A stretch of 64,000 nt of DNA from an uncultured virus (IMG/VR IMGVR_UViG_3300043781_000019) (Duplodnaviria; Heunggongvirae; Uroviricota; Caudoviricetes; Herelleviridae). The stretch is from IMG/VR virus record IMGVR_UViG_3300043781_000019. The stretch is one strand, 5' to 3'. Below the pieces are notes generated by a model. That model saw only the letters and a program-made list of their open reading frames with translations, did not search any database and was not told the origin of the DNA. Positions 487 through 3,991 of the stretch are shown piece by piece. Position numbers and translations under genes: made by a program. Position 1 is the first letter of the stretch, and the number at the start of each line of letters is the position of its first letter.

Positions 487-966
487 ATGAAAGATAACTA
501 TAAAAAATTTAAGTTGCATTTAGGACTAGCTAAAGGCATAAAAGGGAAAAAGCTACGCCGAGAAATTAAAAAGTATAGATGGTATGACTATGCTTACATT
601 AATCGCTATCTTTTGAATTATTCTAGATGTCACTTTAAAAAGGAACATAGGTATCTTAATGAGCGCTTAGATTATCTTGGATTAGTAGTTGAAAATGAAG
701 TTTACTATAGGAATAAAAAGAGCTTACTGCCTCATATTTACAATTTATTTAAACACATGGAAAAATACAACCCAGAATACTTAAAGGGACTTAAATATTT
801 TATCAAGTATCTAGAAGCAAAACATTATTATGAGGGGAATGTTATTGATTCAGAAACTAAAGAAATATGTGATACCATGGAAGAATTTGTGCAAGCACTA
901 GATGCTAATAGTATTGCTAAGGCATCTGCCTTATATGTTAATAACTATGATAAATGGTGGGATTGA
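487..966 (+). CDS. hypothetical basic protein
   Basis: 159-aa ORF, co-oriented with neighbours. Confidence 0.7.
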   Translation: MKDNYKKFKLHLGLAKGIKGKKLRREIKKYRWYDYAYINRYLLNYSRCHFKKEHRYLNERLDYLGLVVENEVYYRNKKSLLPHIYNLFKHMEKYNPEYLKGLKYFIKYLEAKHYYEGNVIDSETKEICDTMEEFVQALDANSIAKASALYVNNYDKWWD

Positions 967-1022
967 GCAAGAACTCTGTTAATTAAAAAAGAGACTAGAT
1001 GCTATAATTTAGGAGGTGCCAA

Positions 1023-2180
1023 TTGAAATTTTTAGACTTATTTGCAGGCATTGGTGGATTTAGGCAAGGAATGGAAAATCAGGGTAATAAGTGTGTTGGT
1101 TACGTTGAAATAGATAAATGGGCACGTCAATCCTATCAAGCAATTTACAACACAGAAGGAGAGTGGACAGCTAATGACATTACAAAAGTCACAAATGAAG
1201 ATTGGCAACAGTTCAAAGGAAAAGTCGAGTGCATCTGTGCAGGGTTTCCGTGCCAGAGCTTTAGCATCGCTGGTAGACGACTTGGGTTTGCCGACAAAAC
1301 TCGCGGAACGCTATTTTTCCAAGTTGCCCGCGCAGCCGAACAAGTCAAACCACGTTATTTGTTCTTGGAAAACGTCAAAGGGTTACTATCACATGACCAA
1401 GGACGGACTTTTGAAGTCATCCTCCAGACATTGGATGAACTCGGGTATGATGCGGAATGGCACGTGCTTAACAGCAAAGAGTTCGTACCACAAAACAGGG
1501 AACGGGTCATCATTATCGGACATCTTAGAGGAGAAAGTACCAGAGAAGTATTTTTTGAGTCAGGAGAAAGTAAACAACTTGTTGAAGAGAATGAAATAGT
1601 AGACTTGCTACCAACTTCAGATAGCAGACATGGACGAAGAGGAACTGTATTATCTCCAAAGGGGATTAGTTCTGCTTTGGCTGCCACCGACTATAAGCTA
1701 CCCAAGCAGATTATACAAGTTGGCAACTATATGGAAGATCATAAATTTAAAAACCCTCAGCCAGGTAGGGTATACTCAAAGGATGGCATATCACCAACAT
1801 TAAATACCATGACTGGTGGCAATCGGCAACCCAATATTGTAGTTGAATCAGAACCTATAAGGGCTGTAAATTCTCCAGAAGTATCTAACAAGACACAAAA
1901 TGGGAGAAGAATAAAAGACGTGGGCGACCCAGAGTTTGCATTGACAGTAAGAGACAGACACGGCATCGTAATAGGAAAGGGTAAATCCCTTAGGATACGT
2001 AAGTTAACACCATTGGAATGTTGGAGATTACAAGGCTTTCCTGATTCTGCTTTTTATAAGGCTAAGGAATCTGGGGTAAGTGATAGCCAACTTTATAAGC
2101 AAGCTGGTAATAGTGTTACAGTACCTGTTATTGAGTTTGTCGCAAGACGGTTGAGTGGCGCTAATGGTCACTTGTGGTAG
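1023..2180 (+). CDS. DNA (cytosine-5)-methyltransferase
   Basis: Motifs LFAGIGG (I), GFPCQSFS (IV), ENVKG (VI), QNRER (VIII), LTPLECWRLQGFPD (IX), YKQAGNSV (X); AGGAGG RBS before a TTG start. Confidence 0.96.
   Translation: MKFLDLFAGIGGFRQGMENQGNKCVGYVEIDKWARQSYQAIYNTEGEWTANDITKVTNEDWQQFKGKVECICAGFPCQSFSIAGRRLGFADKTRGTLFFQVARAAEQVKPRYLFLENVKGLLSHDQGRTFEVILQTLDELGYDAEWHVLNSKEFVPQNRERVIIIGHLRGESTREVFFESGESKQLVEENEIVDLLPTSDSRHGRRGTVLSPKGISSALAATDYKLPKQIIQVGNYMEDHKFKNPQPGRVYSKDGISPTLNTMTGGNRQPNIVVESEPIRAVNSPEVSNKTQNGRRIKDVGDPEFALTVRDRHGIVIGKGKSLRIRKLTPLECWRLQGFPDSAFYKAKESGVSDSQLYKQAGNSVTVPVIEFVARRLSGANGHLW
1174..1599 (+). CDS. nested alternative-frame polypeptide within the MTase gene (M.EcoHK31I beta-like candidate)
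   Basis: 141-codon +1-frame ORF with AAGGAG upstream; C-terminal SLSDILEEKVPEKYFLS resembles the LxDILE..V.EKYxLS segment of C5-MTases. Confidence 0.55.
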   Translation: MTLQKSQMKIGNSSKEKSSASVQGFRARALASLVDDLGLPTKLAERYFSKLPAQPNKSNHVICSWKTSKGYYHMTKDGLLKSSSRHWMNSGMMRNGTCLTAKSSYHKTGNGSSLSDILEEKVPEKYFLSQEKVNNLLKRMK

Positions 2181-2195
2181 AAAGGATTAAAAATA

Positions 2196-2405
2196 ATGTC
2201 ACATAAGTTAACTGATAACGAGCATAATAGTTTAAAATTAAGTGTATTGGAACAAGCAGGGGTGGATAATTGGATTGGTTACAGTGCTGTTGGAGCAGTA
2301 TATGACTACGAGGACTATCTTTATGGGCTGGACGATGACCAGACCCCCTTGTCTTTTTATGAATGGCTGGATAAAAACAACAAGAGTATTGATGATTGGC
2401 TTTAG
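2196..2405 (+). CDS. small acidic phage protein with LExAGVDNWxGY motif
   Basis: 69 aa, D/E-rich, AAAGGA RBS. Confidence 0.75.
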   Translation: MSHKLTDNEHNSLKLSVLEQAGVDNWIGYSAVGAVYDYEDYLYGLDDDQTPLSFYEWLDKNNKSIDDWL

Positions 2406-2408
2406 TGC

Positions 2409-2437
2409 TTGACATATAAATTCTTATGCGCTACTAT
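2409..2437 (+). promoter_or_regulatory. sigma-A-type promoter
   Basis: TTGACA-N17-TACTAT upstream of the gene at 2470. Confidence 0.75.
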
Positions 2438-2469
2438 TAAAGTATAAAGAAAGAAGGTAGCAAAGTGTA

Positions 2470-2931
2470 ATGGGTATATTTAAAGAAGCTAAAGAAGTAT
2501 TTATTCCAGATAGTATGTTGGATACTACTACATGGGTAACTGATAAAGAGTTGGATGATATGCTAGATAATCTCCCTAAAAGTACCTTAGAGAAACTTGC
2601 AAAACGCTATAATGAAGATGCTGTAAAAGAGCAAAAAAGGGCACCTAAACGGAAAACAAAACTTTACCTTGCTGTTCAGCAATGGTCAGATAGTGACGGC
2701 TGGGAGCCAGGTGAGGGAGGTGCTAATATCTTATATGCTACCCTGAGTAAGGATAAGATGGATGCATACGTAGCTGATTTAAACAAGGATTGGCGCAATA
2801 AAGTTGAATGTGATTTAGTGACAATTGACTTGGACACAGACTACATTGACAAGGTACATAAGGGAACTAAGACACAGGTGGCCTCTTGGTTTGATCAAGG
2901 GTTTGTGTCTGATGATCCATTTGACATTTAG
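2470..2931 (+). CDS. hypothetical acidic protein (paralog of 2947..3459)
   Basis: Shares YLA...SDGW..GE.G.NIL..T..K.KMD.Y.A.LN with the next gene. Confidence 0.8.
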   Translation: MGIFKEAKEVFIPDSMLDTTTWVTDKELDDMLDNLPKSTLEKLAKRYNEDAVKEQKRAPKRKTKLYLAVQQWSDSDGWEPGEGGANILYATLSKDKMDAYVADLNKDWRNKVECDLVTIDLDTDYIDKVHKGTKTQVASWFDQGFVSDDPFDI

Positions 2932-2946
2932 AGTAGAGGGGTAACT

Positions 2947-3459
2947 ATGGATACAGAAGTTGAATTGCAATTGCTTAATATGATGCTTGTTGACGACACT
3001 AAATTCACCTTAAGGAACGATGGCGTGTTTGACTTTGAAGGTGCAATTAAGCAAGCAGAAGAATGTGATAAACCCGAACTAGCAGATTTTATGAAAGAAA
3101 GCCATGATAATGTTAGGGAAGTACTCCTATATATGCATAAGGTTGAAACGAAAAGTGACAAGCATGACCCTAGTGAGCAAAGCACAGTTATATACCTAGC
3201 GACCTATTTCTGGGATAGTTCAGATGGTTGGTATGGTGGGGAAACAGGAACTAATATTCTTTTTGTTACACCAGACAAGAAGAAAATGGATGACTATTTA
3301 GCTTCCCTTAATCCTAATGAAATTGATAAAGATAATATTACAGTAACAGTAGTTAAAACTAATGTGGACTATCTTAGCGAGATTGGACCGGAAACAGAAA
3401 CCTTGGTTGATTCTGGGTATGATGAAGTTGAAATTTATGATGAACATGATGATGTTTAA
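2947..3459 (+). CDS. hypothetical acidic protein (paralog of 2470..2931)
   Basis: Same shared motif; very acidic C-terminus. Confidence 0.8.
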   Translation: MDTEVELQLLNMMLVDDTKFTLRNDGVFDFEGAIKQAEECDKPELADFMKESHDNVREVLLYMHKVETKSDKHDPSEQSTVIYLATYFWDSSDGWYGGETGTNILFVTPDKKKMDDYLASLNPNEIDKDNITVTVVKTNVDYLSEIGPETETLVDSGYDEVEIYDEHDDV

Positions 3460-3472
3460 AGTTGGCATGTAC

Positions 3473-3501
3473 TTGACATACAGGAAGTAATGTGCTAATC
3501 T
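3473..3501 (+). promoter_or_regulatory. sigma-A-type promoter
   Basis: TTGACA-N17-TAATCT. Confidence 0.7.
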
Positions 3502-3523
3502 TAGTATGCAATGGGGTTTAAAT

Positions 3524-3991
3524 ATGGCAAAATATAATATGCCAGAGCAAGAGGCAAATAAAGTATTTTCAAGGGTACTAGGCGACATGGACATTGTTGG
3601 TGCTATTGAAACAATTATGGGAGTTAACGAAAGAGAGGAAAATAACGATATGACCGTGGATAAGGACTTACAAGATATTAAGGAACAACTAGCAGAAGTT
3701 AAAGCAGAGATTGCACAAGTGAAAGCCTCTAGTTTATACAATCAGATGCTTGGCCTTTTAGAGAGTGGTCATTATGGCATGTTTATGAATCTCATGCATG
3801 GTGTTACTGAAAAACCAATTAGTTTGGGCCAAGAGTTATTTGATGATCTTATAACGACTATAGGCAATCTGTACAAGTGGCACGAAGAAGAAGCTGTTCC
3901 TAATTGCTTTCCCTTAAATGCACTCAAACATGCTACAAAGAGGTATGCTAAGAGAAACAACCTTAATACAGAAAAGCTTGAGCACCTGTAG
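3524..3991 (+). CDS. hypothetical protein with coiled coil
   Basis: Start moved to the ATG at 3524, downstream of the promoter and a GGGG RBS. Confidence 0.75.
   Translation: MAKYNMPEQEANKVFSRVLGDMDIVGAIETIMGVNEREENNDMTVDKDLQDIKEQLAEVKAEIAQVKASSLYNQMLGLLESGHYGMFMNLMHGVTEKPISLGQELFDDLITTIGNLYKWHEEEAVPNCFPLNALKHATKRYAKRNNLNTEKLEHL

Follow-up and report, generated by a model that had tools for sequence, protein, structure and literature searches.

A conserved +1-frame gene nested within a phage C5 cytosine methyltransferase gene, and its probable role as a small enzyme subunit

The window analysed here is a stretch of 64,000 nucleotides from an uncultured virus (IMG/VR record IMGVR_UViG_3300043781_000019), and this report concerns a C5 DNA cytosine methyltransferase gene within it (alpha) together with a 141-codon open reading frame (ORF) that lies inside that gene, in its +1 frame (beta). 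Judging by the comparison of diverged homologues, the +1 frame holds a functional overlapping element, with beta kept under purifying selection: stop avoidance, constraint on the four-fold sites of alpha, conservation of the +1 protein and recurring start signals all lead to this conclusion. Beta bears, moreover, an element that is canonical in C5 methyltransferases and is missing from alpha. From these sequence comparisons we infer, with reasonable though not high confidence, that beta is a translated small subunit which binds alpha and completes the enzyme, its translation, its binding and the need for it in activity all being part of that inference. A first-pass annotation of the same DNA, made without database searches, had described the nested ORF and regarded it as a case of dual coding; the ORF is indeed present, and dual coding is now strongly supported by the avoidance of stops, the constraint on synonymous sites and the conservation of the +1 protein in diverged homologues. 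The features on which the argument turns are the following.

1023 to 2180, plus strand: alpha, C5 DNA cytosine methyltransferase gene, 385 amino acids, TTG start (ORF list, PF00145, TIGR00675 and alignment to M.HhaI)
1174 to 1599, plus strand: beta, overlapping ORF in the +1 frame of alpha, ATG start, 141 amino acids (ORF list, homology to MM1 orf14 and selection tests)
1432 to 1560, plus strand: most constrained part of beta, W87 to S129, over which the synonymous sites of the host frame are nearly invariant (four-fold-site identity 0.70)

The comparison is based on 160 homologous loci (numbered with the prefix L below) that were fetched with an N-terminal pattern (MKFLDLF / GFR.GME), giving 162 sequences with the window and Streptococcus phage MM1 included. 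After eight sequences running off a contig and six with an alpha ORF of less than 280 amino acids had been dropped, 148 full-length genes were kept, many of them near-identical, and 32 representatives with less than 85% nucleotide identity were taken from them. An open +1 run of at least 120 codons exists in 147 of the 148 genes; in the +2 frame, the median length of the longest run is 34 codons. The first-pass annotation had proposed stop-codon avoidance across homologues as a check. No +1 stop is seen in the 32 representatives, against 7.3 expected when synonymous codons are shuffled over the whole gene (mean chance of none 0.0003) and 4.1 expected when the shuffle is confined to the region, so that local codon usage is preserved (mean chance of none 0.006, at worst 0.108, in L067). 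For the window's gene alone the two shuffles expect 8.9 and 4.9 stops, and not one of 300 whole-gene or 500 region-only shuffles was stop-free. Whole-gene shuffles expect 325 stops in the +1 frame downstream of beta, where 427 are seen, and 1219 in the +2 frame, where 1257 are seen. When a fixed region is compared, the +1 frame is free of stops in 31 of the 32 genes; the mean number of stops is 11.8 in the +2 frame and 3.4, 1.4 and 14 in the three reverse frames. An antisense gene was considered as the cause of the constraint and rejected, no reverse frame being consistently open across the 32 genes.

The synonymous sites of alpha tell the same story at a finer scale. Four-fold-site identity rises from 0.385 before beta to 0.554 over the first part of beta and 0.70 over the last, and falls to 0.323 downstream (overlap versus flank, Mann-Whitney p 8e-10 and 8e-7). 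Codon identity reaches 0.93-1.0 at alpha V148, L149, N150, I164, G166, H167, L168, R169, G170 and F177; more specifically, the codons for I164, H167 and L168 are identical in all pairs and those for G166, R169 and G170 stand at 0.93-0.94, while the Leu and Arg codons of motifs IX-X have a codon identity of just 0.27-0.39. At the protein level, identity of the +1 product is 0.448 and 0.603, against 0.314 and 0.354 expected under independent codon choice.

Such constraint could conceivably act on the nucleic acid rather than on a protein, the +1 ORF being untranslated and its bases being held in place by recombination that homogenises the DNA beside a swappable recognition region, or by RNA structure. 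In agreement with this, the alpha-type genes are mosaic (a shared core with differing recognition regions), the constraint peaks beside the junction with the variable region, and beta has no fold of its own. Homogenisation, however, does not clear stops from one frame over 140 codons in 32 lineages whose bases vary, the other border of the variable region, at motif IX, is without such constraint, and amino-acid conservation in the +1 frame exceeds the nucleotide-level expectation. An explanation at the level of the nucleic acid is accordingly considered very unlikely.

The first-pass annotation had given the nested ORF a ribosome-binding site of its own, and the hexamer is found 12 nt 5′ of the ATG.

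1156 to 1161, plus strand: AAGGAG, possible weak ribosome-binding site of beta, which also encodes the conserved alpha residues T-E-G-E (read from the sequence)

Among the 32 representatives, a GGAG is present at the matching place in 30 and an ATG at the aligned start in 28, with both in 27. Beta stops at a TAG (1597-1599) and its C-terminal end reads ...SSLSDILEEKVPEKYFLSQEKVNNLLKRMK; the string with which the earlier description had the ORF end does occur at its place, but nine further residues follow it. The overlapped stretch had also been described as richer in G+C than its flanks, which is correct, if modest in extent: the G+C fraction is 0.43-0.51 over 1126-1575 and 0.39-0.42 in the rest of the gene. 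Outside the methyltransferase gene it is 0.27-0.36, and part of the contrast in the window arises because the whole gene has been inserted into an AT-richer phage backbone. Over the family, the nested part has a G+C fraction of 0.431, the downstream part 0.412 and the upstream part 0.395, and the nested part exceeds the downstream part in 24 of the 32 genes.

What beta may contribute is suggested by its C-terminal tail, where three features of the window coincide.

1510 to 1584, plus strand: beta tail SLSDILEEKVPEKYFLSQEKVNNLL, canonical post-motif-VIII element of C5 methyltransferases, in the +1 frame (tail profile, 54.6 bits)
1518 to 1556, plus strand: alpha segment GHLRGESTREVFF, out-of-frame reading of the beta tail and link after motif VIII (translation, variants and structure model)
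1551 to 1557, plus strand: T TTT TTG run in the beta frame, a -1 slippery-like heptamer just after ...EKYF (specific to the window)

The last ~25 residues of beta correspond to SLSDILEE.V.EKYFLS.E....LL, and LSDILE is invariant in all 53 aligned beta proteins. The main frame had been said to read these bases as GHLRGESTREVFF directly after motif VIII (QNRERV), and to be without the LxDILE..V..KYxLS segment that the nested ORF has. Both statements agree with our results, since the tail profile matches the window's gene in the +1 frame and has no match in frames 0 or +2. Throughout the family, a profile score of 15 bits or more is reached in the +1 frame of 148/148 genes (median 48) and in frame 0 of 0/148 (best score -5.0). 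Alpha is without the element because it reads those bases out of frame as GHLRG...VFF, and its variants follow codon changes in the tail, giving GHFRG in L168 and GHLRS in L169.

As controls, 43 other loci were used, namely six weaker phage matches and 37 loci from Bacilli genomes, the latter comprising eight from genomes holding L097, L142 and L160 and 29 new loci taken from the 30 top Pfam matches across 301 genomes. A motif filter found the methyltransferase ORF in 35 of the 43. Nine of these have GH[LS]R..[FL]P after motif VIII (L169, L173-L177, L190, L200 and L206), three of which (L174-L176) are family genes already fetched as L097, L142 and L160; all nine carry the tail in the +1 frame, at 22-56 bits and inside an open +1 run of 142-194 codons. 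None of the other 26 has a +1 tail, and their open +1 run near motif VIII is 9-53 codons long. Several of the 26 hold the element in frame 0, the clearest being L199 (...SLADFLEKEVNERFFLSEEKIAKLV... after motif VIII and a spacer, 32 bits), and L199, L182, L189 and L192 are single-frame relatives with the tail in frame after motif VIII. L168, which the motif filter missed, proved to be dual-coded on a check by hand. From the 9/9 against 0/26 of the controls and the 148/148 against 0/148 of the family it follows that the element lies either in frame 0 or in the +1 ORF, which is the placing that complementation predicts.

In the reading that we favour, frame 0 of 1023-2180 would yield alpha, a protein of 385 amino acids with motifs I-X and a target-recognition region, and the +1 frame, from the ATG at 1174 to the TAG, would yield beta. 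Beta has as its first part a poorly structured leader written over alpha motifs IV-VIII and as its second part a conserved C-terminal module, the last ~25 residues of which are the element found in frame, between motif VIII and the variable region, in ordinary single-chain enzymes. Beta would be translated separately and at a low level, from its own and probably weak start; it would then bind alpha, and its tail would take, in trans, the place of the in-frame element at the start of the small domain. The outcome would be a two-polypeptide enzyme of the M.EcoHK31I type. The first-pass annotation had left the choice between a two-subunit and a frameshifted enzyme, and dual coding and the displaced element favour the former, whereas the latter is unsupported, as discussed further below.

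Several observations weigh against this reading. Alpha keeps all ten motifs, unlike the alpha of M.EcoHK31I, and HMMER places a weak HhaI-like stretch (…EIVDLLPTSD…) in the alpha frame just past the overlap, with low posterior probabilities; taken together, these mean that alpha may be independent of beta and may not need it. Modelled alone, beta has a mean predicted local distance difference test score (pLDDT) of 52 and is mostly disordered, only residues ~112-141 being confident (82-88), and the whole protein has no usable match in PDB sequences (best E 0.51), NCBIfam, Pfam (best E 0.1, to unrelated families) or the ESM Atlas. Four of the 32 representatives are without a start codon at the aligned position, the 12-nt gap between AAGGAG and ATG exceeds the usual spacing, and the conservation of AAGGAG is ambiguous, as the hexamer also codes for conserved alpha residues. 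In one gene of the 148 (L125) a stop interrupts the +1 ORF, leaving a +1 run of 86 codons, and alpha is intact. Finally, the use of one N-terminal pattern makes the sample one family, not a set of independent lineages of all C5 enzymes.

Some of these points suit a different role for beta. It may be real and translated and yet not be a structural subunit; it could, for instance, adjust how active the methyltransferase is or when it works, or act on a host factor. The resemblance between its tail and the canonical element would in that case be a leftover of its origin. The evidence of selection is silent on the function of beta, and such a role would be compatible with the presence of all ten motifs in alpha, with the largely disordered model of beta and with a longer class of beta proteins (166-169 amino acids) that has a conserved basic C-terminal extension. 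It does not, however, predict the strict either/or placing of the element in family and controls, and the strongest constraint falls precisely on the canonical element. A role of this kind is therefore judged unlikely, if far from negligible.

There may also be no separate beta protein at all. Ribosomes could slip from alpha into the +1 frame as they complete motif VIII, and might later return, giving an enzyme or isoform that includes the element. The element does follow motif VIII in canonical order, the T TTT TTG run sits where a -1 shift would return to the alpha frame, and the +1 frame of L060 and similar relatives stays open across the recognition region and motifs IX-X. But a shift has no need for ~110 open and constrained upstream codons, nor for a conserved ATG, and in the window a single +1 shift would give a truncated protein ending at 1599, so that two precise shifts would be required. 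Furthermore, the run is specific to the window, because relatives have TATTTCCT there (alpha VFP): alpha residue 178 is P, encoded by CCT, in at least 90% of the 31 aligned homologues, and F in the window. No conserved shift site at the frame junction emerged from T TTT TTG, the one candidate examined, other sites not having been scanned systematically. With its sole slippery-looking run peculiar to the window, the frameshifted enzyme of the first-pass annotation is not borne out, and its chances appear slim indeed.

Returning to the two-chain reading, variants of the layout hint at how it may have arisen. A split layout is found at L060:401-1490, where a 178-amino-acid ORF (401-937) holds motifs I-VIII (Pfam model positions 1-163) and overlaps by ~145 codons a 330-amino-acid +1 ORF (498-1490), which bears the leader and tail of beta together with the recognition region and motifs IX-X (Pfam model from position 181). 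In relatives whose +1 frame runs into the recognition region and motifs IX-X in this manner, the Pfam model aligns from about position 177-188, at the tail. Among 257 beta-like database proteins, 20 have the long form of L060, 110 end within 20 residues past the tail, like the beta of the window, and 84 have an extension of 21-50 residues, the rest being unclassified. A plausible history, drawn from these layouts, is that in an ancestor with everything in one frame the spacer behind motif VIII was lost and the frame shifted, which would have given the split form, and that another shift, past the tail, brought the recognition region back into the alpha frame, so that beta became short; the order would thus be ancestor, split form, nested form.

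The longer beta class (L024, L043, L068, L070, L012 and L142) has its basic extension over the start of the alpha variable region, with sequences such as …PLPQDT…RTLLKVNRRR or …LLPDT…ILKRQGK. Premature stops or frameshifts in alpha occur in some prophage copies, with stops in L018, L019 and L154 and decay in L036 and L071. In L018, L019, L036 and L154 the +1 ORF is still open from the start codon through the tail, and in L071 it reads into other sequence past the tail. These five copies represent either decaying genes or sequencing errors.

A wider claim is possible, though we lean slightly away from it: that a large phage and prophage family of 'orphan' C5 methyltransferases, with beta matches in 2909 protein-cluster representatives, consists of obligate two-chain enzymes. 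A small +1 protein encoded across the catalytic core would supply the first element of the DNA-recognition domain in trans, the layout would have come from frameshifting loss of the spacer after motif VIII, and L060 and other split forms would represent stages in between. Since beta is conserved and the recognition region of alpha is freely swapped, several alphas could share one beta, and the weak start of beta would offer a handle on the timing or amount of methylation.

The breadth of the family is apparent from database searches with beta. A profile of the two nested proteins from the window and MM1 finds 408 database proteins at E<=1e-3, and a profile of 53 beta proteins finds the 2909 cluster representatives at the same threshold, 1437 of them at E<=1e-10. 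The window's beta belongs with MM1 orf14, sharing the profile match, the position in the host gene and the invariant LSDILE tail. By tblastn, beta is found in 236 phage records, mostly of Streptococcus (146) and also of Clostridium, Lactococcus, Lactobacillus and others. Matches far outside Firmicutes phages exist as well, in MH674343.1 (Methanobacterium virus Drs3, E 1e-11) and PQ480021.1 (Caulobacter phage DMCA, E 4e-6), and these beta-like stretches mean that the nested layout may be spread well beyond the phages of Firmicutes.

The annotation of such genes is uneven. That annotation would miss the nested ORF, as the first-pass annotation expected, is true of most records and not of all: among the 60 phage rows listed, 52 annotate one methyltransferase CDS (coding sequence), four annotate two and four are unannotated, but the ORF is annotated in the MM1 records, in one under the name 'C5 methyltransferase beta subunit'. 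The homologous ORF is thus already known from the MM1 records and a few others. In the literature covered, which excludes subscription journals, neither a published test nor a family-level account of the nested gene was found.

Two further searches concern beta-like segments in other proteins. A word-based search for longer proteins with beta residues 100-141 returned one candidate, which was no match. Three database proteins (P0106, P0108 and P0111), with a recognition-region-like stretch (PTLR) upstream of the beta-like part and in frame with it, were at first taken for possible in-frame relatives of beta outside methyltransferase genes; the idea was dropped on the strength of two relatives fetched with P0108 (L165 and L167), in which the beta-like stretch is in the +1 frame of a methyltransferase gene. 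P0223, a database ORF of 611 amino acids, begins with a DPPY-type methyltransferase domain and has, in one frame, C5 motif I and a beta-like segment; it represents either two methyltransferase genes in tandem, fused or frameshifted, or an artefact of gene calling. A fold search with beta was set aside because its mean pLDDT is too low.

The host gene itself is a C5 methyltransferase by two profiles, with the domain covered end to end and curated cut-offs exceeded: alpha matches PF00145 at E 4.4e-81 (273 bits against a cut-off of 22, profile positions 1-322 of 324) and TIGR00675 at 293 bits (cut-off 100.65), and an alignment of its N-terminal half with M.HhaI has an E value of 2.8e-48. The names of the C5 motifs follow general usage and, in part, PMC3404938. 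FAGIGG, FPCQ, ENV, QNRER, RKLTPLECWRLQGFPD and AGNSVTV are all present in the frame-0 translation of alpha, to be compared with the scheme of FxGxG (I), PCQ (IV), ENV (VI), QxRxR (VIII), IX and GN.V (X). In the structure model the large domain is confident, the strand E160-168 (...IIIGHL) having a pLDDT of ~92, and residues 179-319 fall below 50, which reflects the differing recognition regions of the aligned sequences. Within the variable part, alpha residues ~214-267 (window 1660-1830) include two recognition-region-like stretches, GISSALAATDYKLPKQ and GISPTLNTMTGGN, which suggests a composite or double target-recognition region.

The setting of the gene is described by two additional features.

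1011 to 1016, plus strand: AGGAGG, ribosome-binding site of alpha, 6 nt 5′ of the TTG start (read from the sequence)
965 to 2172, plus strand: insertion bearing the methyltransferase gene, relative to Lactobacillus phage Lb338-1 (blastn)

The window is ~95-96% identical to the Lacticaseibacillus myophages Lb338-1 and Lbab1. On either side of the gene, positions 2-964 and 2173-3571 match Lb338-1 (L001) at 96% by blastn, and the 1208 bases in between (965-2172) stand in place of 21 Lb338-1 bases, between homologues of lb338_phage_24 and _23. Since the substitution falls between two small genes of Lb338-1, the methyltransferase gene is, on this alignment, an inserted accessory gene in the phage backbone. 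An identical copy of it is found on an IMG/VR contig (L005), and the phage enzymes closest to alpha, with ~50% identity, come from phages of streptococci, enterococci and lactobacilli.

Double-stranded DNA phages and bacteria seldom have long overlapping genes on the same strand, and such genes are discarded by gene callers. The comparative evidence for an overlapping gene in this family is strong and the family is large, as the 236 phage records and 2909 cluster representatives attest. It offers a clean case of an overlapping gene born by the displacement of a piece of a protein into another frame. If beta is needed, (i) 'orphan' phage methyltransferases of this family that are cloned after recoding or codon optimisation may be inactive or altered, (ii) methylome predictions and anti-restriction studies that assume single-chain enzymes would need revision and (iii) the family would provide what work on targeted methylation looks for, a natural and evolvable split-methyltransferase scaffold.

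Among known systems, one of the closest is that of Streptococcus phage MM1, whose record (MM1-1998) lists orf13 as 'C5 methyltransferase alpha subunit' (385 amino acids) and orf14 as 'beta subunit' (141 amino acids). As in the window, the host gene of MM1 (GenBank DQ113772) encodes 385 amino acids, and the offset of the nested ORF (+151 nt), its frame and its length are equal. MM1 orf14 and the window's beta are 46% identical (E 1e-27) and end with the same tail, and the host proteins are 55% identical. The two differ in the recognition region of alpha and in the host, the window having the backbone of a Lacticaseibacillus myophage. No experimental work on MM1 orf14 was found, and the name 'beta subunit' derives from the annotation of the record. 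In phage SpSL1, according to PMC6755750, a homologue of alpha methylates RCGRC during infection; this methylation took place in the native context, with the nested ORF present.

M.HhaI and other single-chain enzymes represent the undivided state, and the single-frame relatives named above, which carry the tail of beta in frame and have no long +1 ORF, are of this kind. M.AquI (CYCGRG) is naturally split in the variable region, and fragments of M.SssI cut in the proximal variable region reassemble without overlap (PMC3404938). Relatives such as L060, with a 178-amino-acid ORF followed in the +1 frame by tail, recognition region and motifs IX-X, have a layout like that of M.AquI. In the window, by contrast, alpha is unsplit, only the ~25-residue element is in the second chain, and the genes overlap completely instead of being consecutive.

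The precedent cited by the first-pass annotation, M.EcoHK31I of Escherichia coli (YGGCCR), is rendered correctly there, to judge from PMC2836561 and PMC3404938. Activity requires its beta, which is encoded within alpha in a different frame and bears motif IX; the first 42 residues of that beta are dispensable, and internal Met codons can serve as starts (PMC2836561). The likeness to the window is one of layout: in both, beta lies wholly inside alpha, in another frame, and bears an element that alpha lacks. The window likewise has a conserved second ORF within the alpha gene, on the same strand and in another frame. Its alpha, however, does have motif IX (RIRKLTPLECWRLQGFPD) in frame 0, so that motif IX, carried by beta and absent from alpha in M.EcoHK31I, stays with alpha here and the post-motif-VIII element is found in beta. 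Both chains have been shown to be required in M.EcoHK31I, and here that requirement is presumed. Beta of the window thus belongs to a known but under-annotated kind of gene, and differs from that of M.EcoHK31I in the piece of the enzyme that has been displaced.

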